From an uncultured Methanobacteriaceae archaeon (GTDB lineage Archaea > Methanobacteriota > Methanobacteria > Methanobacteriales > Methanobacteriaceae), in assembly GCA_963771995.1 (NCBI GenBank), contig CAVYVR010000006.1, positions 570,344 to 602,343 of the forward strand: a DNA stretch of 32,000 nt. The letters are read 5' to 3'. Below, piece by piece: positions 7,565-17,022 of this stretch. The notes beneath the pieces were generated by a model, which searched no databases, was not told the DNA's origin, and saw only the letters and a program-made list of their open reading frames with translations. Made by a program: the position numbers and the translations under genes. Within the stretch, counting starts at the first letter, position 1, and every line of letters starts with the position of its first letter.

Positions 7565-8008
7565 ATGAAGATACTTTTTATAGGGGCACGTTTATTTGAG
7601 GATGTAGCACTCTACACGAAAAAAAATTCGATTACAAGCATTATTACAGAGTCTAATTCAGAATCTCCCAACTTGAAACTCGCTGATTCACATTACATTG
7701 TTTCAAGGGGAATGGATGAACCAATGAAAATTGCCATTCAAGAGAATGTTGATGGTGTTGTACCATTAATAGGAATTGACGGGCCACTGATCGAAGTAGC
7801 AATTATGAAAGAGAAACTCAAAGAAGACCATGGAATTCCAGTTGTATCATCTGGAGTTTTTACCGCATCCATATGTGTTGATAAATGTAAAACCAAGGAA
7901 TTTTTTGTTAAAAATAAAATTAACACTCCTAAATTCTTTAAAATTTCTAAAAACCATTATAAAAGTGTATTACCTATAATCGAATCAAAACCATCCCATG
8001 GTTCTTAA
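7565..8008 (+). CDS. CarB-like ATP-grasp enzyme, N-terminal fragment (pre-ATP-grasp domain); the frame is interrupted
   Basis: MKILFIGARL...VDGVVPLIGIDGPLIEVAIMKEKL..GIPVVSSG..ASICVDKCKTKEFF resembles the CarB N-subdomain. The fragment stops just before the expected glycine-rich ATP loop. Confidence 0.75.
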   Translation: MKILFIGARLFEDVALYTKKNSITSIITESNSESPNLKLADSHYIVSRGMDEPMKIAIQENVDGVVPLIGIDGPLIEVAIMKEKLKEDHGIPVVSSGVFTASICVDKCKTKEFFVKNKINTPKFFKISKNHYKSVLPIIESKPSHGS

Positions 8009-8702
8009 ACAGCCCCAAGGCCAAGGAGGATCTGGGATACAAATAACATCATCAATTAAAGAAGTGAGTGAATATTTCAGTAAATATGAAAATGCCGTTG
8101 CTGAAAAATTCTTAGATGGATTTGAAGTTTCCATTGAAGTCCTTAGATGGCAAGGTAAATCTGTGCCGTTAGTCCCTGTTTATAAAGGAAAAACCACAGT
8201 AGAAGGCATTCATCCACTTAAAAAGATTAAAAAAGCCCCTTTAAATATAGATGGAATTGATAATCTTAAAAATAACCAAAAAATCATGGAAATTGCAGTT
8301 GATATTGCAGATAGCATGGATCTAGAAGGAACAGCAGATATAGACATCATTTTTGACAATCAATCCAAGGAACTTAATGTAATTGAAGTCAATGCAAGAC
8401 CCAGCGGTACAAGATACATCACAAATGCCGCATCAGATATTAATATCATGCAAGAACTAATTGAAATGGCATCTGGTAATTGGAACCCTTTAAAACTTAA
8501 AAATAGAATTAAGAATTATTCCTCAATTGAAATACCAGTAGGTAATTATCTAACCAATAAAAACAACTATAAATTCCGCGAATTTTTAAAAAATAATTCA
8601 TGGATAATTCACGGCCCTAAAAACTATGAACGTATAACAATTCGCGGCGAAACTATTGCAGATGCTGTTAAAACAGCTGAAAACCTAAAAATTTTGGATT
8701 AA
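7998..8702 (+). CDS. CarB-like ATP-grasp enzyme, C-terminal fragment (ATP-binding domains); it overlaps the N-terminal fragment by 11 nt in the +1 frame
   Basis: MVLKQPQGQGGSGIQI is the ATP-grasp glycine-rich loop. ADIDIIFDNQSKELNVIEVNARPSGTRY can be compared with CarB in this window ([27 protein letters not shown]). Confidence 0.8.
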   Translation: MVLKQPQGQGGSGIQITSSIKEVSEYFSKYENAVAEKFLDGFEVSIEVLRWQGKSVPLVPVYKGKTTVEGIHPLKKIKKAPLNIDGIDNLKNNQKIMEIAVDIADSMDLEGTADIDIIFDNQSKELNVIEVNARPSGTRYITNAASDINIMQELIEMASGNWNPLKLKNRIKNYSSIEIPVGNYLTNKNNYKFREFLKNNSWIIHGPKNYERITIRGETIADAVKTAENLKILD

Positions 8703-8865: not shown

Positions 8866-9939
8866 TTGAGCAATATTCAGTTAGAAATTTTCATATTCTT
8901 ACTCGCGTTCATATCAACAGCACTTTTTACCCTTTTTATAAAAAAGGCTTTGAAATATGCAGATATTAAAGATAAACCAATAGTAACAGAACACAGCCAT
9001 AAAGCAGGCACACCTACAATGGGAGGATTAGCAATACTTATGGGAGTTCTTCTTATTGCATGTGTTTACTATACAGATAAAAATCTTATTCTAACCGTCA
9101 TGATTATGATGACCGCTGGAATCGTGGGATTGATGGACGATCTCATAGGACTTAAAACCAAGGAAATTCAGAAGGTAATAAAAAACATCAGCCCAAAACC
9201 TGTTGAAATTGGAAGGTTGAAACTAAAGACTGGCGAAAATGCCAGGGTAACTACTCCTAAAGCCAAAAAAGACCTTGAATATCTCCTGAAAAATAATCTA
9301 GTCGAGATAACCGGTGAAGCACCCATAAAAAGTGAGATTAAAGAAAATGAGAAAATTTTGGCCCAGATCCTAGTTTCTTTGTTTCTTGTAGCTTCAGGAG
9401 CTGTTGGTGCTTCTGTACTAGGATTTAACATTGGACTGTTAACAATTCCCCTAGTGATATGCGGGATAGTTGGGGCTATTAATTCTGTAAATCTTATAGA
9501 TGGAATGGATGGCCTTGCTGCAGGAATAATAGCTATAGCCTCGATTGCATCGGCTATATTTGCAATATCCACTGGAAACACCAATGGAGCAATACCTTTT
9601 ATTGTAATTGCTGGAGCATGTGTAGGATTTCTTGTATATAACAAGTATCCTGCAAGTATTTTTATGGGCGATACAGGTGCATTTGCCCTTGGAGCGGGTT
9701 ACATAACAGCAGCATTTTTAGGGGATGTAATCTACTTTGCAGTAATAGCAATAGCAGTTCCAATAATATCAGTTGTTGTTAGCCTTCTTCATAGAGCACA
9801 TTTCATAAAACTTCCTGTAGAACCCCTCCATCACACTCTTAACTACAAAGGATTGTCCGAGAAGAAAATTGTCTTAATTTATTGGGCGGCGACTTTAATA
9901 GTTTGTTTGGGTGCATTGTATGGATACCACGCACTTTAA
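8866..9939 (+). CDS. MraY/WecA-family (GT4) polyprenyl-phosphate phospho-sugar transferase, MraY-like, with a long hydrophilic insert
   Basis: The product is a multi-pass membrane protein. Motifs seen are PTMGGLAILMG, GLMDDLIGLK, NLIDGMDGLAAG, NKYPASIFMGDTGAFALGA and HH near the C-terminus. An insert of roughly 70 aa (KEIQKVIKNISPKP...IKENEKI) follows the DD motif. RBS AAGGTGG precedes the TTG start. Confidence 0.9.
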   Translation: MSNIQLEIFIFLLAFISTALFTLFIKKALKYADIKDKPIVTEHSHKAGTPTMGGLAILMGVLLIACVYYTDKNLILTVMIMMTAGIVGLMDDLIGLKTKEIQKVIKNISPKPVEIGRLKLKTGENARVTTPKAKKDLEYLLKNNLVEITGEAPIKSEIKENEKILAQILVSLFLVASGAVGASVLGFNIGLLTIPLVICGIVGAINSVNLIDGMDGLAAGIIAIASIASAIFAISTGNTNGAIPFIVIAGACVGFLVYNKYPASIFMGDTGAFALGAGYITAAFLGDVIYFAVIAIAVPIISVVVSLLHRAHFIKLPVEPLHHTLNYKGLSEKKIVLIYWAATLIVCLGALYGYHAL

Positions 9940-9971
9940 TCATAAAATCAATCAACCTAAGGAAAAATAAA

Positions 9972-11471
9972 ATGAATAATATCACAACATCTTACTTGGC
10001 CAAAAAGGTGAATGGAAAGTTAATAGGGGATCGAAAACCTATAAACGGGATTTTCACCTTTTTAAACAGTGCACAATCTGGTGATGTGGTAGTGAGGCAT
10101 TGGATTGATGAACATGGAGTGGAAATAGCTGCCCAAAAAAATGTATCGTGCATTGTAACTCAAAATCCAAGAGGAAAAACCGAAGAAATTGCCCATAAAC
10201 TCGGAATACCCCTTATAATTACGTCTAAAATTGAATTTGCTAATGCATTCGCAATAAAATGGGCAATTAAAAATTTTGCCAAAGACTCCCTTCGTGTAGT
10301 TGTAACTGGAACTAATGGAAAATCTACCACAGCCCATATGATATATACAATCCTAAAAAATTCAGGTTATATTACTTACACAAATACAGATGCAAAATCT
10401 GAATTTAACACCCTGATCGACCCAATTGTTGCAAAACAGATCGCAGAATTCGAAACTCTTAACAATAAAAAAATTCAGGCCATGGTTGTTGAGGTTTCAG
10501 AGGTTCAAGGATGGTTAGATAAACTAATGAAAGATCATGCACAAATCATGACTTCAGCAGTAGATCCAGATGTTTTGGTTATCACCAACATAAGCCTCGA
10601 TCACATAGGTCTTGTAAATTCTATTGAAGAAACATTTGATGAGATCTATGGATCATTAAAAGCTATTTCCAATAAATCCTCAAAGGATGGTTCAGCTGAA
10701 GGGATCATCAAAAATGACAAGTATGCTGTTTTAAATTCAGATGACCCTCTTTTATGGAAAATGGGACAACTTGTAGAAAATCATGAAATTAAACTTTTAT
10801 TCTATGGAAGCAACCCTGAGGGATCTATCCCTCCAAATATAACCATGAGATCTGATGGAATTTATATGGGCAATGATCTATTTTTAAAAACAGAGAAACT
10901 TCCATTTCAAAGCAAACACTTCCTACAAAACACCATGGCAGCGATAAGTGCATGTATAGCTTTGGATATCAATATAGAATCTATTAAAACGTCAATTTCA
11001 TCATATAAACCCCTTAATAGAAGATTCACAGTTCTTGGCACTGAACCCACTGTTATTGATGATTTTGCCCACAACCCTGAGGGTATAATAGCTACGATAC
11101 AAAGCACGGCGAAAATGTGTAATGGGGTTTTGTATGTTGTATTTGCAATTAGAGGTTCCAGAGGAGAATCAATTAATATTTTAAACACAGAAGCAGTTAT
11201 AAAAGGCCTTGAAGGAATTAATCATTGTCTAATTATTACAAGCAGTGAAGAAGTAGTCGATGATGCAAACACTGTAACAGCACATGAAAAAGATATGGTG
11301 ATCGAAACTCTAGAAAAGTATGGTGAAAAATATATATTTCAAAAAAAATTATATCCTTCACTTGAGCACAGTGTAAAGTCAGCAAAAGCAAATGATACCA
11401 TCTTACTCATTGGTGCTCAGGGAATGGACCCTGCAAGTGAAATATTGAAAAAAATTTATATGGATATATAA
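9972..11471 (+). CDS. Mur ligase family protein, MurE/MurF-like (pseudomurein-type peptide ligase candidate)
   Basis: The N-domain GKLIGD...GDVVVRHWIDEHGVEIAAQKNVSCIVTQ is MurF-like. The central domain shows VVVTGTNGKSTTAHMIY, VVEVSEVQG, VITNISLDHIG and NSDDP. The C-domain shows PLNRRFTVLG and VIDDFAHNPEG. ATG 9972 (MNNITTSY) was chosen over the track start 9882, which overlaps the upstream gene. Confidence 0.9.
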   Translation: MNNITTSYLAKKVNGKLIGDRKPINGIFTFLNSAQSGDVVVRHWIDEHGVEIAAQKNVSCIVTQNPRGKTEEIAHKLGIPLIITSKIEFANAFAIKWAIKNFAKDSLRVVVTGTNGKSTTAHMIYTILKNSGYITYTNTDAKSEFNTLIDPIVAKQIAEFETLNNKKIQAMVVEVSEVQGWLDKLMKDHAQIMTSAVDPDVLVITNISLDHIGLVNSIEETFDEIYGSLKAISNKSSKDGSAEGIIKNDKYAVLNSDDPLLWKMGQLVENHEIKLLFYGSNPEGSIPPNITMRSDGIYMGNDLFLKTEKLPFQSKHFLQNTMAAISACIALDINIESIKTSISSYKPLNRRFTVLGTEPTVIDDFAHNPEGIIATIQSTAKMCNGVLYVVFAIRGSRGESINILNTEAVIKGLEGINHCLIITSSEEVVDDANTVTAHEKDMVIETLEKYGEKYIFQKKLYPSLEHSVKSAKANDTILLIGAQGMDPASEILKKIYMDI

Positions 11472-11717: not shown

Positions 11718-13127
11718 ATGAACTGTATAATAATTGGAGCAGGCAATGCAGGACGTCCTGCAGCTAGGATCTTGAACCACGTAGGTAACAAGGTCATATT
11801 AACTGACAGAAAACTCCTCGAAGAATTTCCAGAAATGGTGCAAAAAACCCTTAAAGTAATGGAAAAGGAGGGGATAGAACTTCTTCTAGGTTTTGATCCA
11901 TCTACAAAAATTAAAAACGTTGATTGTGCCTATGTATCTCCTACAGTGCCTGAGAATTCGCCAATAAAAAAATTGTTGAAAGAAAATGAAATTGGAATAT
12001 TAAGCAACGAATACATTTCAAAAGTTATAAACGATTTATTAAAGCTAGATGTTATTGGAATAACTGGAACCCTTGGAAAAACAAGCACCACCCATATCCT
12101 TTCGGAGATATTCAAAGAAGCGGGTTATAAAGTGTGGACATGTTCATCCCGCATGGGTAACCTTTTAAGCGAGGTTATAGTGGAGGGTATTGTTGAGGGA
12201 CTCAACATCAAAAACAACATTGCTGTACTTGAACTTCCACACGGGACTTCCAGACTCATGTCGCAAGTTGATCTTAAAGTTGGAGTAATTACCAACATAT
12301 ACCCAGACCATCTAGATGAATTTGACTATTCAATGGAGAAATATGTTGCACGAAAATTGTTTATTGCAAATTCCAGTAATATTCTAGTTTCCGGATTACA
12401 GTGCAAGGAATATATAGAAGCCATTAGAGACGATACAATATATTATTGTCCAGAAAATAACAATATTTGTCATGTTATGGGGAAATTAGAAGATGGAATT
12501 TTGAATATAACTTTTGATATTCCTCAAATAGAAATCAAAGGCTGCTTTGAAACAGCCTTCAAATTGTTAGGATACTACTTTGAAAACTCCATCGCAGCTT
12601 CTGCCGCTGCAATTGCATACGGACTAGATGAAAAGTTTATAATAGCTGGTTTAAAAAGTTTCAAAGGAATTGCAGGACATATGGAGTATATTGGAAATTT
12701 CAATGGGAGAGAAGTACATTTTGATGCCGCTTTTGTGCCCGAAGGACTAATTAATACCCTCGAAAGTTTCCATGATCAGGAATTAATCGTTTTAATAGAC
12801 AACCCTGACAGTACCAATCCCAGGGACAAGTTCAAAGTGGGTGAAGTGGTTGGAAAATATGCAAAGGTAATAATCTGTAGTGGATTCAATGAAACAACCA
12901 AAAAACCAGATATTGAAGCAGCGAACGAAGTTATAATTGGTGCTGGGAAATCTAAAGCCCTGAAGATCCCTGTTGAAGATATGATTACAGCTGGAAAATT
13001 ATCTATTAAACATTCCACACCAGGATGTACCATTTTGCACGTTGGTCCTGGAGCTATAACCAATTATGATGATGTTAAGTTCAAGATGATATCAGGCATC
13101 AAGATAGGATGTAAAAAATATGAATAG
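11718..13127 (+). CDS. Mur ligase family protein, MurD-like N-terminal Rossmann domain, divergent C-domain
   Basis: [30 protein letters not shown] is a MurD-like N-domain. [24 protein letters not shown] and [13 protein letters not shown] follow. The C-domain reads [10 protein letters not shown] and [10 protein letters not shown] where Mur ligases usually show GR.E and D.AHNP. Confidence 0.88.
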
Positions 13128-14673
13128 TACAGCTAAAACTGATGGAAACCAAGATCGTCGGGAGGATTCTTATGTTTACGGGGTTATAGGAATATGTGGT
13201 GTTGTTTCGAATCTCATTGCAAGGATATTAATGGATCATGGTTTTGAAGTAATTGGAACAGATATTCATACAAAGGAAGAGTGTAAATACATCTACACAT
13301 TCGAAAAGTACAAATTAACCCTTTTACTATCAGAACATCCTGAATCATTTTTTGAAAAATCAACTTGTATAATTCCTCCTCCAAGTCTTCCTGAAAGTTC
13401 TGTACTCTTTAAGAAATTAAAAGAATTTGGCAATATATTAACTGTTGAAGATTTTCTGAAAATTTTCAAACCTGAAAAACCTGTAGTCTGTATATCAGGA
13501 ACTAACGGAAAAACCACTACTACCACTCTTCTAAAGCATATATGTAGAAATTCGGGTCTCGAACCAACAGAACATGGATTTAAAAATTTACAGGGGAATA
13601 TCGATTATATTCCCCCTTTACAGGCTAGACTCAATGGAGATGTCGCTGTTCTTGAGACGGGAACGTTTGGAAAACCAGGAGATCTAAAAATTATGGTTGA
13701 ACGATGCGAACCAGACTGCGGAATTGTAACTAACATCAATCCAGACCATCTCAATGAAAACCTTGATTTCATGGATTATGCAAGTATTAAGGGTGAATTT
13801 ATAACATATTTCAAAGATAAAGCTTTGATAGTGAATTCTGATGATCCCACAGTTTATGGTTTAGTTGATGATGATGAACAGGATGTTGTTACGTTTGGTG
13901 TTGATTCAGCTAGATCTGGAATCGGTTACAAAAAATGCTGGTGTGGAAGAGAAATTAGAGTTGATGAAACAATTACAGGTTCGGGGTTGTACAGTTGTGA
14001 ATGTGGATTAAAGAGGCCAGAACCAGACTATCTTGCAATGGATTTAGATGAATCGAATGGAAAATTCACTCTTAAAACTCCTGATGAGGTTTTGGATATA
14101 CAGATGAAATTAATTGGACTCCACAACGTGTACAATACTCTAGGAGCATTTATTGCTGCAAAAGAATTCTTTAAAATACCCAGTAATGAGATTATAAATG
14201 CAATTGAAAGTTTTGAAGGTGTTCCTGGTAGGATTGAATACTTGTATAGTTATAATGAAATTGATGTTTTAATCGACTACGGCCATAACCCCGCAGGTAT
14301 CGAAACTGTTCTAAGAGAGCTTAAAAAGGTTTATAATAAAATTACGGTGGTTATTACTGTTTCTTCAGAATCCGGAGATTCAGGAGATTTAGAGATACTC
14401 GAAAGAGCCTTAGAAAATGGGGATTTCGTGGTGCCTGCATCCTTTGCATCCAGAAAAGCCGCAGAAAAAAAAGAAGAAAATATTTCTTCCAATAAGATCG
14501 TGTATACGGATTTGTACCCAGTAAATTTTAAAAATGGAACTCTTGGGGCAAATTCTGACCAAGTGTTAGAAGGGCTTAAAAAAGGATTGGAATGTGAAAC
14601 AAACGCATTAGTATGTCTTGGGGAAGCAGCATTTAAATATAAAGAAAATATTCTCAAATGGAAAAATTTGTAA
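13120..14673 (+). CDS. Mur ligase family protein, MurC-like N-domain, with a Cys4 zinc-ribbon-like insertion in the central domain
   Basis: [30 protein letters not shown] is MurC-like. [63 protein letters not shown] and [10 protein letters not shown] follow. The insertion is [34 protein letters not shown]. The start overlaps the previous stop (ATGAATAG), which implies translational coupling. Confidence 0.9.
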
Positions 14674-14812
14674 AATTTTGAAATTTGTTTATATGCTTCT
14701 TATAAAGGTAATACTTTGCATACTATTATATCAATAAAGATTAAATCAAATAAGATAAGATCAAATAAATTTTATAAAGTGCATATTATCAATGCACAAA
14801 ATAGGTGAAAGA

Positions 14813-15262
14813 ATGTTCATAAAAATTAGGAGAGATACGTTAATCATCTTATTACTGGCCTTCATGCTCATTGTATCAGGGAGGGTCATGACTTACATGT
14901 CTTATGCATCATCCACCGATGTGGGTGATCAGGGCGTTCAAATATCCGGAATAATGGTAAAGGGGAATGATATAGTCCCATCAGATTCCATAAAAAGTAG
15001 TTTAGCTGATGTTGGATTTAGATCAGGAAGTTATATAGCAGGAGATACCCTTGTTACTAGTAAACGTAAGGTTCCATTGAATGAAGCAATAGACAATGCC
15101 AAACAGGCAGTCATGTTAACAACAATACCGGGTACACAGATTACACCGATTGTTGCAGCAGATGTCCAAGTAAACAAGGATACTGGAACTGTAACAGTAA
15201 ATGTTATTGAAGACTTCTCAAACATTCACATTAGTGGACAGGGAATTAATGGAACCTACTAG
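14813..15262 (+). CDS. Bitopic membrane protein of unknown function: N-terminal TM anchor plus an extracytoplasmic domain with a POTRA/FtsQ-like sequence pattern
   Basis: The anchor is MFIKIRRDTLIILLLAFMLIVSG. The domain is VQISGIMVKGNDIVPSDSIKSSLADVGFRSGSYIAGD...AIDNAKQAVMLT...VAADVQVNKDTGTVTVNVIE. GGTGA at 14804-14808 precedes ATG 14813, and ATG 14792 is an alternative start. The POTRA assignment is by eye only. Confidence 0.8.
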   Translation: MFIKIRRDTLIILLLAFMLIVSGRVMTYMSYASSTDVGDQGVQISGIMVKGNDIVPSDSIKSSLADVGFRSGSYIAGDTLVTSKRKVPLNEAIDNAKQAVMLTTIPGTQITPIVAADVQVNKDTGTVTVNVIEDFSNIHISGQGINGTY

Positions 15263-15272
15263 GGGTTAGATC

Positions 15273-16535
15273 ATGGTAAAATTAAATATTATGAAGTTAG
15301 CAATACTTGTAATAACTATTACAATGGTTGTTGGCACATCAGCAGCTACAATGAATGTTGTGGTTATAACAGACCCCACAGGACAGGATCCGAATGGGGC
15401 CGCAGCCGGAAGTCAATCATGGGCGGCAAATATGTTTCAGTCAACATTTATACTGTCTAAAACTAATCACTTTGCTGTACTATCTGGTGGTGAGGGTAAT
15501 GCTACGCCTAGACTTGCTGCAATTGTTTCTGCCTTAAACGTTATGGAAAGCGGAGGCACTCCAGCCCAAGCAGCAACATTAGCTAATCAATTTTCCGGTA
15601 TACGAGTCATGGTAGGATCAGCCACACAAGGGGCGGCTGTTGGCGGTTATTTCGATGCCTATGTTGTAATAGTATCACCTAACGGTACAATAACAATAAC
15701 CCCCTACAAAAGTGGTTTGGCTGTACTTCCAGCGGGCGATAAAGGAGCAATAATACATCTTTTAAATACTCCAGGTAACCCTCAGTACGGTTCTGCCGAT
15801 GCTGTGCGGCTGCAAACAGCAGAACTGATGGGACAAATGATAAGAGACGGTTATCCTGCCACAGATGTTTTAGGGGCAGCGTTTAAGAATGTTGCTGTAA
15901 ATGCTGGTGAAAAACACGGTGGAGGGGCTGTAAATCTTGTTTCAGAAATAACGACTGGGGACATGTTCACCCCAACAGCACTTAACACAACAGGATTTCC
16001 AATGGATTCACCGTACAGTAAAACAAGTCCAAATGGATGGAGTATTGCATATCCTGAAGCTGATAACTACCAAACAAGTCCTATTGATGGTACCAACCTT
16101 ACAACCGTTTATGCATATGATGCATTAAAAAATGCTATTACGGTAACAGGAAATTCCACAGCAGTATCCGTCTATGGAACAGATGCTCCGGGAGTTTCAG
16201 AAACTACCCAAGAAATAGTGGATGCTTCTGTGGCAAAACATGGATTCAGCAATACACTAATTGCTTCTGATATCAACAAAGCAATAGCCAGCGGACTAAT
16301 AATTGGTGTTAACGACGTGGAAGCTAAAGATATAAACCTAAACCCCACTCAAAATGCAGTTGGAGTATATTTTACTCCACTACCGAACGACAGAACTGCT
16401 CCAGCATGGAATATACCAATAAGCTCATCAATTTTGAACATATTAGGGAACATGCAGACAGCGATAGGCTTGATATTGATTATTTTAGTCCTCTTTAGAA
16501 GTACTTTAATATCCTCTTTCATAAGGAAAAAATAA
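15273..16535 (+). CDS. Exported protein of unknown function: signal peptide, Ala/Gly/Thr-rich ectodomain of about 370 aa, C-terminal TM anchor with a basic tail
   Basis: The signal-like N-terminus is MVKLNIMKLAILVITITMVVGTSAA|TMNVVV. The C-terminus is AIGLILIILVLFRSTLISSFIRKK. Five N-x-S/T sequons are present (NAT, NGT, NTT, NLT, NST). A GGGG RBS lies 6 nt before the ATG, 10 nt after the upstream stop. The gene is visibly richer in GCN/GGN codons than its neighbours. Confidence 0.88.
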   Translation: MVKLNIMKLAILVITITMVVGTSAATMNVVVITDPTGQDPNGAAAGSQSWAANMFQSTFILSKTNHFAVLSGGEGNATPRLAAIVSALNVMESGGTPAQAATLANQFSGIRVMVGSATQGAAVGGYFDAYVVIVSPNGTITITPYKSGLAVLPAGDKGAIIHLLNTPGNPQYGSADAVRLQTAELMGQMIRDGYPATDVLGAAFKNVAVNAGEKHGGGAVNLVSEITTGDMFTPTALNTTGFPMDSPYSKTSPNGWSIAYPEADNYQTSPIDGTNLTTVYAYDALKNAITVTGNSTAVSVYGTDAPGVSETTQEIVDASVAKHGFSNTLIASDINKAIASGLIIGVNDVEAKDINLNPTQNAVGVYFTPLPNDRTAPAWNIPISSSILNILGNMQTAIGLILIILVLFRSTLISSFIRKK

Positions 16536-16668: not shown

Positions 16669-17022
16669 ATGGCCTTAATTTTAATACGTGCTGAGGATCA
16701 GGGAAAACTTTTAAACACCCTTGCAGACATCGAAAGACATGCTGGACTGAAAGTAGCCGGGAAACCTAGAATAATAGACCCCAAAAAAGCTGATGAAATT
16801 GCAGGAAAAATATTAAAACAACAATTACGTTCAAAATCAGATATAGCAGTCCTTGTTCGCGTTGAAGATGACACAACTAAAAGTATTGTTCAGATAAGAA
16901 AAATTCATCCACCAGCACATGTAATAGTGATCAGCGAGGAGTATGGTGAATTCAAAAAATTAGAAGAAGCATTTCATGGATTAACATATCTGAAAGGATA
17001 TTACTCCCATAAAAACAAGTAA
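16669..17022 (+). CDS. Small cytoplasmic hypothetical protein (117 aa)
   Basis: A clean ORF with AAGGAG at 16654-16659 before the ATG. TATA-like repeats lie upstream (TTATTTTATA twice, 16609-16631). I recognise no motif in the product. Confidence 0.7.
   Translation: MALILIRAEDQGKLLNTLADIERHAGLKVAGKPRIIDPKKADEIAGKILKQQLRSKSDIAVLVRVEDDTTKSIVQIRKIHPPAHVIVISEEYGEFKKLEEAFHGLTYLKGYYSHKNK

Follow-up and report, generated by a model that had tools for sequence, protein, structure and literature searches.

A predicted POTRA-like protein and its predicted Ntn-fold partner in the pseudomurein gene cluster of methanogenic archaea

Introduction

Among archaeal wall polymers, pseudomurein alone, to our knowledge, shares the building plan of bacterial peptidoglycan. 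The cytoplasmic part of its synthesis (pMur ligases, MraY) is currently being elucidated. We know of no penicillin-binding proteins or SEDS proteins in pseudomurein archaea, and for this reason the enzymes that polymerize and cross-link the polymer outside the cell are unknown. The extracellular pseudomurein enzymes are listed as unknown in the literature (PMC10117817). The stretch of DNA analyzed here (the window; 32,000 nucleotides of contig CAVYVR010000006.1 from an uncultured Methanobacteriaceae archaeon) carries the following genes of the pathway:

8866-9939, + strand: MraY_archaea (NCBIfam equivalog NF053644)
9882-11471, + strand: pMurE (NCBIfam equivalog NF053648)
11718-13127, + strand: pMurD1 (NCBIfam equivalog NF053646)
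13120-14673, + strand: pMurC (NCBIfam equivalog NF053645)

A short open reading frame follows pMurC. An initial annotation, made by eye, took its product for a bitopic protein with a POTRA-type ectodomain. The locus raises two questions: what kind of protein this gene encodes, and what the protein could do on the outer side of the membrane.

Results

Gene, start codon and family

The ORF (14792..15262, + strand, 156 aa) is a real gene. Its coordinates and translation agree with those first reported, it has 473 homologues in a large protein collection, and it matches all of the NCBIfam equivalog model NF053641, "Mfer763 family" (profile positions 1-137 of 137, 228.5 bits, E=2.5e-68, with a curated cutoff of 170 bits). 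The start at 14792 has to be revised: the second ATG, at 14813, is the more likely one and would yield a protein of 149 aa. It is favored by the N-terminus MFIK of most homologues, by the profile match, which starts at residue 8 of the 156-aa ORF, and by a GGTGA box conserved across all 15 aligned loci, its GGTG part being invariant. The features around the gene are:

14674..14803, + strand: AT-rich spacer 3' of pMurC with the TATA-like elements TTTTATAAA (14770-14778) and ATATTAT (14783-14789), read in the sequence
14804..14808, + strand: Shine-Dalgarno-like GGTGA, 4 nt 5' of the ATG at 14813, read in the sequence
14813..15262, + strand: Mfer763-family gene, 149 aa, start moved from 14792 (NF053641, E=2.5e-68; MFIK starts; conserved Shine-Dalgarno box)
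15262..15266, + strand: GGGGT, Shine-Dalgarno-like box overlapping the Mfer763 stop codon, 6 nt 5' of the Mfer764 ATG, read in the sequence
15273..16535, + strand: Mfer764-family gene, 420 aa (NF053642, E=1.7e-193; AlphaFold2; Foldseek)

The spacer between pMurC and the ORF starting at 14813 measures 139 nt. A AATATTATAAG-like box in it is partly conserved in the alignment of loci, and the region 14674..14803 may contain a promoter for the Mfer763-Mfer764 gene pair.

The Mfer763 family is small: an exhaustive representative search covering 1.84 billion proteins found 28 representatives (50% identity) and no credible member from bacteria or any other outside group. All homologues with a named source belong to Methanobacteriales or Methanopyrus (the Methanopyrus orthologue also exceeds the NF053641 cutoff, with 172.8 bits), and none was found in archaea without pseudomurein; the family is confined to the pseudomurein-bearing Methanobacteriales and Methanopyrales. 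One locus labelled Methanomicrobiales (L037) carries the complete cluster, and its taxonomic label is probably wrong. Two non-archaeal matches, P0146 (876 aa) and P0148 (394 aa), were rejected as relatives: both contain repeats, and their scores result from several stretches added together. In P0133, a candidate domain fusion, the C-terminal half of the family is preceded by an unrelated N-terminal part that resembles a methyltransferase; it was taken as a chimeric or frameshifted gene call.

The gene is not new, contrary to the initial annotation. The family corresponds to OG0001162 of Lupo et al. 2025 (PMC11915815) and to 'Con Pro' of Gene Cluster 2 of Subedi et al. 2021 (PMC10117817); it has been described as restricted to methanogens with pseudomurein and as "devoid of known domains", and such proteins were suggested to represent 'de novo archaeal evolutionary solutions' (PMC10117817). 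The window protein shares with the known family its length, its taxonomic range and its location within the MraY/pMur cluster, 5' of an Mfer764-family gene; the protein itself does not differ. The family had thus been named and described without a fold or a function. The POTRA-like assignment is the new part; no link between POTRA and this family was found in the searchable literature.

The constant neighbor

In the window, the gene does lie immediately downstream of a MurC-like ligase gene, as first noted. This placement is not general: elsewhere the upstream neighbor is pMurE or an unrelated gene, and the link to a Mur ligase is lost in at least six loci. The invariant partner, overlooked at first, is Mfer764, which lies directly 3' of Mfer763 on the same strand in 80/80 loci. 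Methanopyrus keeps the same order, with proteins 39-41% identical to those of the window. The constant neighbor of Mfer763 is therefore Mfer764 and not pMurC.

The two genes are separated by 10 nt in the window and by 0-30 nt in other loci, or overlap (L030, L048). Given the 10-nt gap and the Shine-Dalgarno-like box that overlaps the Mfer763 stop codon, translational coupling with Mfer764 is likely. A third partner was also considered. DUF356 follows Mfer764 in nearly all Methanobacteriales loci; it is not found 3' of Mfer764 in Methanopyrus and was left out of the module for that reason. The gene at this position in Methanopyrus encodes a 369-aa polytopic protein without a Pfam or NCBIfam match. 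Gene adjacency alone does not prove a complex of the Mfer763 and Mfer764 proteins.

The ectodomain has a predicted POTRA-like fold

Three features lie in the part of the protein that follows the N-terminal helix:

14933..15217, + strand: POTRA-like ectodomain, residues 41-135 (AlphaFold2; Foldseek; profile matches to BamA POTRA)
15128..15151, + strand: family-specific, fully or nearly invariant motif P-G-T-x-x-x-P-I, located in the loop that joins helix 2 to strand 2 (alignment)
15248..15256, + strand: glycosylation sequon N-G-T, part of the variable tail at the C-terminus (sequence)

The ectodomain motifs picked out by eye are present and conserved from Methanobacterium through Methanopyrus. 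AlphaFold2 places a strand at residues 46-50, a helix at 57-67, a hairpin at 73-81 with a strand at 86-88, a helix at 89-101 and strands at 113-121 and 126-133. This is the strand, helix, helix, strand, strand order of POTRA domains, with an extra hairpin and a short strand inserted between helix 1 and helix 2. All five models concur (mean pLDDT 78.8-80.1) and the ectodomain reaches pLDDT 87-93, from a shallow alignment of 40 sequences (Neff about 2). In a Foldseek search against the PDB, the first match is FtsQ (8hhf_Q), over 121 columns, long enough to span a helix and the POTRA domain; it is followed by the POTRA domains of BamA (five species), TamA, CdiB, Omp85 and Sam50, over 89-100 columns with an rmsd of 2.8-4.5 A.

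Sequence profiles point in the same direction. Among 177,635 PDB sequences, BamA POTRA accounts for four of the five matches of the full-length family profile at E<=10 (best E=2.4e-4) and for all three matches of the ectodomain-only profile (best E=1.1e-4); both values are of borderline significance. The family and BamA have the pattern IsGv.vkGN.iiPt..i...l...G...G in common. The Pfam POTRA models remained silent: the window protein has no match at E<=1, and among 40 relatives a single one matches PF07244, at E=0.25, which is no usable match. By fold prediction and profile matches together, the ectodomain is assigned a predicted POTRA-like fold, in line with the by-eye call at the level of fold.

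Could the resemblance be due to convergence on a widespread small alpha/beta arrangement or be an artifact of the shallow alignment, the family being a lineage-specific invention with an unrelated function? Several observations agree with this reading. The Foldseek significance is weak (best E 3.9e-3, none at or below 1e-3), and the TM-scores are modest (TMq 0.3-0.4 across the whole chain). In the best BamA match, significance is limited to about 40 residues, and Pfam gives no support. Both the conserved hairpin insertion and the PGT..PI motif, in which P106, G107, T108 and P112 are invariant, are absent from the aligned BamA POTRA sequences. However, two independent lines agree, a profile compared with PDB sequences and a predicted structure compared with PDB structures, and at E<=10 the profile search yields hardly anything else. 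POTRA proteins, belonging to six or more families, make up about 45 of the top 50 Foldseek matches, and the few non-POTRA matches have a probability of 0.14 or less; a weaker alignment with A. baumannii BamA covers nearly the whole domain in the same order. Resemblance without homology is thus considered unlikely.

An N-x-S/T sequon follows the V.ED[FY] motif in 52/83 orthologues. This weakly supports a location outside the cell.

Anchor or signal peptide

The segment preceding the ectodomain could serve either as a membrane anchor or as a Sec signal peptide:

14831..14914, + strand: N-terminal helix, residues 7-34, anchor or Sec signal peptide (AlphaFold2; conservation; published SignalP 5 calls)

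It consists of an RR-containing n-region and an uncharged, Arg-flanked hydrophobic core of 15 residues (residues 9-23). AlphaFold2 predicts a single helix across residues 7-34 and disorder at residues 32-38; G23-R24, Y28 and A32 are invariant.

In the main alternative, the fold would be the same but a Sec signal peptide would be cut after A32, releasing a soluble exported POTRA-like protein of ~117 aa into the wall space, where it would perhaps be bound to Mfer764 or to pseudomurein. Published SignalP 5.0 calls in archaeal mode speak for cleavage: four Mfer763 orthologues are classified as SP(Sec/SPI) with 0 TM, and the Methanopyrus orthologue as Tat/SPI (PMC11915815, Table S1). The shortness of the hydrophobic core is in agreement with this, and so are the disorder that begins at the proposed cleavage site and the motif (S/A)-(Y/F/W)-A at residues 30-32, which fits the -3/-1 rule of signal peptidase and ends in the invariant A32. 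Export by Tat was rejected: the RR pair is conserved, but the RRDTLI of the window protein fits the Tat motif poorly. Moreover, we know of no Tat components in methanogens of the Methanobacteriales and Methanopyrus type.

Conservation argues against a discarded leader. Column identity in the N-terminal 32 residues (0.71-0.76) resembles that of a folded domain and compares with 0.66 in the ectodomain, whereas in the adjacent Mfer764, which provides an internal control, it is 0.35 in the signal peptide against 0.70 in the mature part. Together with the C-terminal transmembrane segment of Mfer764 (0.83), the N-terminus of Mfer763 is among the best-conserved segments. A cleaved leader would not need the invariant G23-R24 and Y28, and a c-region of nine residues starting with Arg would be unusual. 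Subedi et al. also described the protein as containing a transmembrane domain (PMC10117817). Most likely, the hydrophobic helix is retained as an N-in/C-out membrane anchor, and cleavage is a possible but less probable outcome. The original description as bitopic is thus favored by the predicted helix and by conservation, and is at odds with the published SignalP 5 calls.

The partner protein Mfer764

The Mfer764 protein exceeds the cutoff of NF053642. It carries a typical signal peptide at residues 1-25, with a likely cleavage site (...SAA|T) directly before the invariant Thr26 (codon at 15348-15350), and has a highly conserved C-terminal TM helix at about 16455-16523. A25, T26 and N28 are invariant, and Methanopyrus has ASA|T in the same position. 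In the AlphaFold2 model, computed from a shallow alignment of 35 sequences, the mean pLDDT is moderate (74), the core is above 90, and Thr26 opens a strand at residues 25-32. Foldseek retrieves permuted Taspase-1 (E=1.6e-4, probability 1.00) and DUF1028 (2imh; probability 1.00, TMt 0.51), and further choloylglycine hydrolase and the glutaminase domain of GlmS/GFAT. The core thus has a predicted Ntn-hydrolase fold, a four-layer alpha-beta-beta-alpha sandwich, like the enzymes of the Taspase-1/asparaginase type, DUF1028, choloylglycine hydrolase and GlmS glutaminase. Ntn-hydrolases have a nucleophilic Thr, Ser or Cys at the head of the mature chain. Thr26 opens the first strand and, as residue 1 of mature Mfer764, would be a candidate for this nucleophile.

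Mfer764 has no sequence similarity to any Pfam family (scans of 35 relatives gave only noise), and its profile found nothing among the PDB sequences. Unlike in those proteins, it would be signal peptidase, not autoproteolysis, that exposes the putative nucleophile; Mfer764 is also longer by about 200 residues and has a membrane anchor at its C-terminus.

Relation to FtsQ and to Omp85/TpsB proteins

Published surveys place POTRA domains only in FtsQ and in the Omp85/TpsB proteins of bacteria and organelles, and Omp85/TpsB proteins were not detected in archaea (PMC4104836). The latter group (BamA, TamA, Sam50, FhaC/CdiB; PF07244, PF08479) is the sole one with a signal at sequence level. Residues 77-118 of the H. 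influenzae BamA chain, by position its second repeat, match Mfer763 at E=1.1e-4 with the pattern I..v.i.GN..iP...i...l...G...G, and the order of secondary structures is identical. Unlike the Omp85/TpsB proteins, Mfer763 has a single domain in 149 aa, neither a tandem array nor a C-terminal 16-stranded beta-barrel, and occurs in organisms without an outer membrane.

With FtsQ/DivIB (PF08478 and PF03799), Mfer763 shares a single N-terminal helix directly before a POTRA-type domain outside the membrane, the best structural match, a gene 3' of a murC-type ligase gene, and the expected lack of catalytic residues. The initial annotation went further and proposed an archaeal FtsQ-like scaffold, i.e., a bitopic divisome protein that would tie pseudomurein synthesis to FtsZ/SepF-driven division. 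The 121 columns of the FtsQ match could include the helix before POTRA, the gene order recalls that of E. coli, where ftsQ comes after murC-ddlB, and FtsQ is itself an interaction hub with no enzymatic function (PMC6134095). However, the part of FtsQ that binds FtsB is its beta domain (PMC6134095), and Mfer763 ends 14 residues past the POTRA-like domain, with no further secondary structure or Pfam match in this tail, so that this FtsB/FtsL-binding domain is missing. The cytoplasmic tail would comprise about eight residues, the sequence signal is that of BamA POTRA rather than FtsQ, and the conserved partner is Mfer764 rather than a Mur ligase. No FtsQ/DivIB chain appears among the PDB sequence matches of the family profiles at E<=10. 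An hhalign comparison of the family profile with E. coli FtsQ gave nothing (probability 0.1), which is weak negative evidence with a single-sequence template. The PSI-BLAST searches of Subedi et al. found no FtsQ orthologue, and no FtsB/FtsL orthologues are reported in pseudomurein archaea (PMC10117817). A tblastn search (E<=1e-3) of the window plus 81 loci, together 1.13 Mb, detected no homologue of FtsZ, FtsA or FtsQ. The beta-hairpin between the helices, the Ntn-fold partner and the archaeal host set the protein further apart. Mfer763 is not, by its sequence, a member of the FtsQ family, and a role as the FtsQ equivalent of a divisome is very unlikely.

Discussion

Proposed role of the pair

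What we infer from the data above is that the anchor is retained, that the two proteins form a physical complex, that Thr26 acts as nucleophile and that the pair takes part in wall assembly. In the preferred model, Mfer763 would consist of an N-in/C-out helix anchor and one extracytoplasmic POTRA-like domain of ~95 residues with an extra beta-hairpin, and would be co-transcribed, and probably translationally coupled, with Mfer764. Mfer764 would be exported and held at the membrane by its C-terminal helix, and removal of its signal peptide would expose the invariant Thr26 as the first residue. The two proteins would then form a membrane-tethered complex outside the cell. The non-catalytic POTRA-like domain could dock a partner protein or peptide via strand pairing, as in FtsQ and BamA; in this way it might keep Mfer764 in place, set its orientation or regulate it, or else offer it the pseudomurein stem peptide. 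The task of Mfer764 in late wall assembly would be to form or cleave amide bonds, be it for cross-linking, trimming or remodelling.

Ntn-fold proteins act on amide bonds, and some of them, such as gamma-glutamyl transpeptidase, carry out transpeptidation. Connectase, an Ntn-fold enzyme of methanogens, is described as catalyzing transpeptidation (PMC7980362). Transglutaminases are the published candidates for cross-linking; the proposal is only a guess, and it counts against such a role of Mfer764. On balance, the idea that a POTRA adaptor acts together with an exported candidate amidase or transpeptidase late in pseudomurein assembly could as easily prove right as wrong.

A bolder reading combines two claims: that the pair is the missing extracellular cross-linking machine, and that the Mfer763 gene is a stripped-down ftsQ relic. 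Mfer764 would act as a Thr-Ntn transpeptidase, its nucleophile being uncovered by signal peptidase, with the POTRA adaptor positioning or gating the enzyme and the two membrane helices pairing; the helix-plus-POTRA gene 3' of pMurC would derive from a bacterial dcw-type cluster (murC-ddl-ftsQ). The combination is improbable. If the relic part were true, it would provide new evidence on the relation between murein and pseudomurein synthesis.

Significance for pseudomurein archaea

Within the pseudomurein cluster, conservation of Mfer763 and Mfer764 is strict; both proteins are predicted to face outward and had previously been left without annotation. With a predicted POTRA-like docking domain and an Ntn-fold partner carrying a putative exposed Thr, they constitute concrete candidates for the outer steps of wall synthesis. 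A POTRA-like protein encoded beside Mur ligase genes in archaea would also bear on shared ancestry of, or gene exchange between, the murein and pseudomurein pathways. Finally, the pair may offer a surface target found only in methanogens, of interest for inhibiting those of the rumen and the gut.

The Mfer763 gene and its distribution

The open reading frame at 14792..15262 (+ strand, 156 aa), recognized in the initial annotation, is present in the window translation and is a real gene. Its product matches the NCBIfam model NF053641, "Mfer763 family protein" (E=2.5e-68, 228.5 bits, cutoff 170), and has 473 homologues in a collection of 5.8 billion proteins. The start codon needs revision: ATG 14813, yielding a 149-aa protein, is more likely than 14792, because most homologues begin with MFIK, the GGTGA box upstream of this ATG (14804-14808) is invariant in 15/15 aligned loci, and the NF053641 alignment starts only at residue 8 of the 156-aa frame. 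The family is already named in the literature: Mfer763 and Mfer764 were reported as highly conserved, with transmembrane domains, and always located downstream of pMurE (Subedi et al. 2021, PMC10117817). In Table S1 of Lupo et al. 2025 (PMC11915815), the M. fervidus accession numbers are consecutive, which allows OG0001162 to be equated with Mfer763 and OG0001472 with Mfer764.

The family is small and narrow in range. When 1.84 billion representatives were searched exhaustively with HMMER, 28 clusters emerged, mostly fragments; the Methanopyrus representative (P0130) shows 39% identity. The only matches from other taxa in this search, two repeat proteins scoring by summed stretches, were rejected. 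A scan of 185,579 species genomes yielded 156 relatives, and the best 80 of these are all from Methanobacteriales except for one bin. This bin (L037, JBNGDB010000017.1), labelled 'Methanomicrobiales archaeon', carries a complete MraY-pMurE-pMurD1-pMurC-Mfer763-Mfer764-DUF356 cluster with 52-67% identity to the window, and probably represents a Methanobacteriales contig that was binned or labelled wrongly. Homologues were accordingly found in Methanobacteriales and Methanopyrus, not widely in archaea lacking pseudomurein.

Gene neighbourhood

NCBIfam equivalog matches show that the window contains the pseudomurein "Gene Cluster 2"; the remaining window genes are housekeeping, and neither ftsZ nor sepF was found in the window.

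Features around the Mfer763 gene
7565-8008 and 7998-8702: two ORFs, Ddl_archaea, ATP-grasp (NCBIfam equivalog)
8866-9939: MraY_archaea (NCBIfam equivalog)
9882-11471: pMurE (NCBIfam equivalog)
11718-13127: pMurD1 (NCBIfam equivalog)
13120-14673: pMurC (NCBIfam equivalog)
15273-16535, same strand as Mfer763: Mfer764-family gene (NF053642, E=1.7e-193)
16669-17022: DUF356 gene (Pfam PF04009)

The overlapping Ddl_archaea ORFs cover positions 1-133 and 142-367, respectively, of NF053643 (367 profile positions), a break suggestive of a frameshift near 8000, whether genuine or introduced during assembly.

The position behind a MurC-like ligase, noted initially, holds in the window but is not constant: the upstream gene may be pMurC, pMurE or unrelated, and at least six Methanobrevibacter-type loci, each with at least 5.7 kb of upstream sequence, have no Mur ligase or MraY gene before Mfer763. 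An Mfer764 homologue, in turn, is the next same-strand gene in 80/80 loci. The two genes are 10 nt apart in the window, with a GGGGT box overlapping the Mfer763 stop codon, and overlap in some loci. In Methanopyrus sp. SNP6 the Mfer763 start overlaps the pMurE stop, and the order is pMurE, Mfer763, Mfer764 (41% identity) and an unannotated polytopic protein. Such tight, deeply conserved coupling is the pattern usual for subunits of one complex, as Mfer763 and Mfer764 may be.

The polytopic protein (369 aa, locus L082, 9728-10837), without a Pfam or NCBIfam match, probably corresponds to OG0000796 in Lupo et al.; it could act in a further extracytoplasmic or membrane step, e.g., as a polymerase or flippase. 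In nearly all Methanobacteriales loci, but not in Methanopyrus, the gene after Mfer764 is DUF356, whose product has no membrane segment.

Membrane anchor or signal peptide

Mfer763 might be a soluble secreted protein. SignalP 5 assigned its orthologues to Sec/SPI with 0 TM segments (PMC11915815 Table S1), and a signal peptide would also fit the hydrophobic core of 15 residues and the (S/A)-(Y/F/W)-A motif (residues 30-32). Conservation counts against cleavage: residues 1-32 equal the folded domain in conservation (column identity 0.71-0.76 vs 0.66), unlike in Mfer764, where the signal peptide reaches 0.35 and the mature part 0.70. Within Mfer764, conservation peaks in the C-terminal membrane helix (0.83). 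Taken together, these values favour a retained Mfer763 helix that would pair with that of Mfer764, cleavage being the less probable course.

These methanogens are not known to have a Tat system. A twin-arginine pair in the n-region (R6-R7, 14831-14836) is conserved in all Mfer763 orthologues, and SignalP 5 assigned the Methanopyrus protein to Tat/SPI (PMC11915815 Table S1). An N-x-S/T sequon in the variable C-terminal tail of 52/83 orthologues (NGT at 15248-15256 in the window) would fit an extracellular, possibly N-glycosylated tail.

The predicted POTRA-like fold

The POTRA domain proposed by eye in the initial annotation is supported at the level of fold, not by Pfam: no Pfam POTRA model matched the window protein at E<=1, and only one of 40 relatives gave a match (E=0.25). 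The full-length family profile, run on the complete set of 177,635 distinct PDB sequences, produced five matches at E<=10, four of them BamA POTRA constructs (best: H. influenzae BamA 6j09_A, E=2.4e-4). Three matches, all BamA (best E=1.1e-4), came from a profile restricted to the ectodomain and built on a more diverse set of 30 sequences, among them Methanobrevibacter, Methanosphaera, Methanothermobacter, and Methanopyrus. The aligned stretch, isGvivkGNdivPtdsiranvaasGlrsgs against ISDVKIKGNSIIPTEALKQNLDANGFKVGD, corresponds to the strand 1 and helix 1 signature on which the proposal had been based; a weaker A. baumannii BamA alignment spans nearly the whole domain with order preserved.

The AlphaFold2 model, built on a 40-sequence alignment, has a mean pLDDT of 80 (87-93 for residues 41-135), with five concordant models. 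It comprises helix 7-34, strand 46-50, helix 57-67, hairpin 73-76/79-81, strand 86-88, helix 89-101, and strands 113-121 and 126-133. The top Foldseek match in the PDB is FtsQ of the FtsBLQ complex (8hhf_Q, E=3.9e-3, probability 1.00, 121 columns). Among the 49 matches that follow, about 45 are POTRA domains, from BamA (five species), TamA, CdiB, Anabaena Omp85, and yeast Sam50. They typically align over 89-100 columns at rmsd 2.8-4.5 A, and non-POTRA matches are few, with a probability <=0.14.

The likeness could reflect fold convergence, and each number is individually not strong, with no Foldseek E-value as low as 1e-3 and profile E-values near 1e-4. Since two independent methods nevertheless single out the same domain family and almost nothing else, we conclude from model and profiles that the ectodomain is POTRA-like. 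Family-specific additions are a conserved hairpin, G-S-x-I-x-G-x-T-L-x-T, between the helices and an invariant P-G-T...P-I loop ahead of strand 2. No paper linking POTRA with pseudomurein or these methanogens was found in the searchable literature; this assignment and that of an Ntn fold to the partner appear new.

The further suggestion of an FtsQ-like divisome scaffold is not supported, the resemblance being one of outline only. In the bitopic FtsQ, the membrane helix is followed by the POTRA (alpha) domain and an FtsB-binding beta domain (PMC6134095), whereas the window protein ends 14 residues past the POTRA-like domain, and its cytoplasmic part would be about 8 residues. An hhalign comparison with E. 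coli FtsQ gave no match, and the PDB sequence matches of the family profiles included neither FtsQ nor DivIB chains. No FtsZ, FtsA or FtsQ homologue turned up in 1.13 Mb of sequence, covering the window and 81 related loci to a distance of about 8 kb from the gene. The parallel between E. coli murC-ddlB-ftsQ and pMurC-Mfer763 of the window remains a curiosity only.

The Mfer764 partner and a proposed role

Mfer764, to which the literature assigns no known domain, is predicted to adopt an Ntn-hydrolase fold. Its AlphaFold2 model (mean pLDDT 74, core residues 80-165 above 90) matches circularly permuted Taspase-1 in Foldseek (E=1.6e-4, probability 1.00), as well as the DUF1028 protein 2imh (TMt 0.51), choloylglycine hydrolase, and the GlmS/GFAT glutaminase domain; Pfam scans and a profile search of PDB sequences gave no match. 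Ntn-fold enzymes cut amide bonds, and some, such as gamma-glutamyl transpeptidase, pass the acyl group to an amine; they need the nucleophile as residue 1, normally exposed by self-cleavage. At its N-terminus Mfer764 carries a typical signal peptide, which closes with SAA (with ASA in Methanopyrus) and directly precedes the invariant Thr26, the residue that opens the first strand of the model; cleavage by signal peptidase would thus put Thr at residue 1.

Connectase of methanogens is an Ntn-fold enzyme performing acyl transfer to an amine (PMC7980362). For the cross-linking of pseudomurein outside the cell, transglutaminases are the sole enzymes suggested in the literature (PMC10117817). Given its predicted fold and the position of Thr26 directly behind a signal-peptidase-type site, Mfer764 is a candidate for an exported enzyme, amidase or transpeptidase, that acts on pseudomurein.

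Methanopyrus Mfer764 (L082 8476-9726) contains CPKC...CPVC, with weak zinc-ribbon Pfam matches. At residues about 250-275 (window about 16020-16100), the Methanobacterium consensus is C..DG...C..DG, one Cys per half, and in the window protein both of these positions are Ser (TSPNG...TSPIDG); the segment looks like a zinc-ribbon knuckle being lost.

Mfer763 would be a small non-catalytic POTRA adaptor, membrane-tethered or membrane-held, that may dock Mfer764, or the stem peptide, via strand pairing. Together with Mfer764, the putative Thr-nucleophile enzyme, it would take part in pseudomurein assembly at a late step outside the cell.
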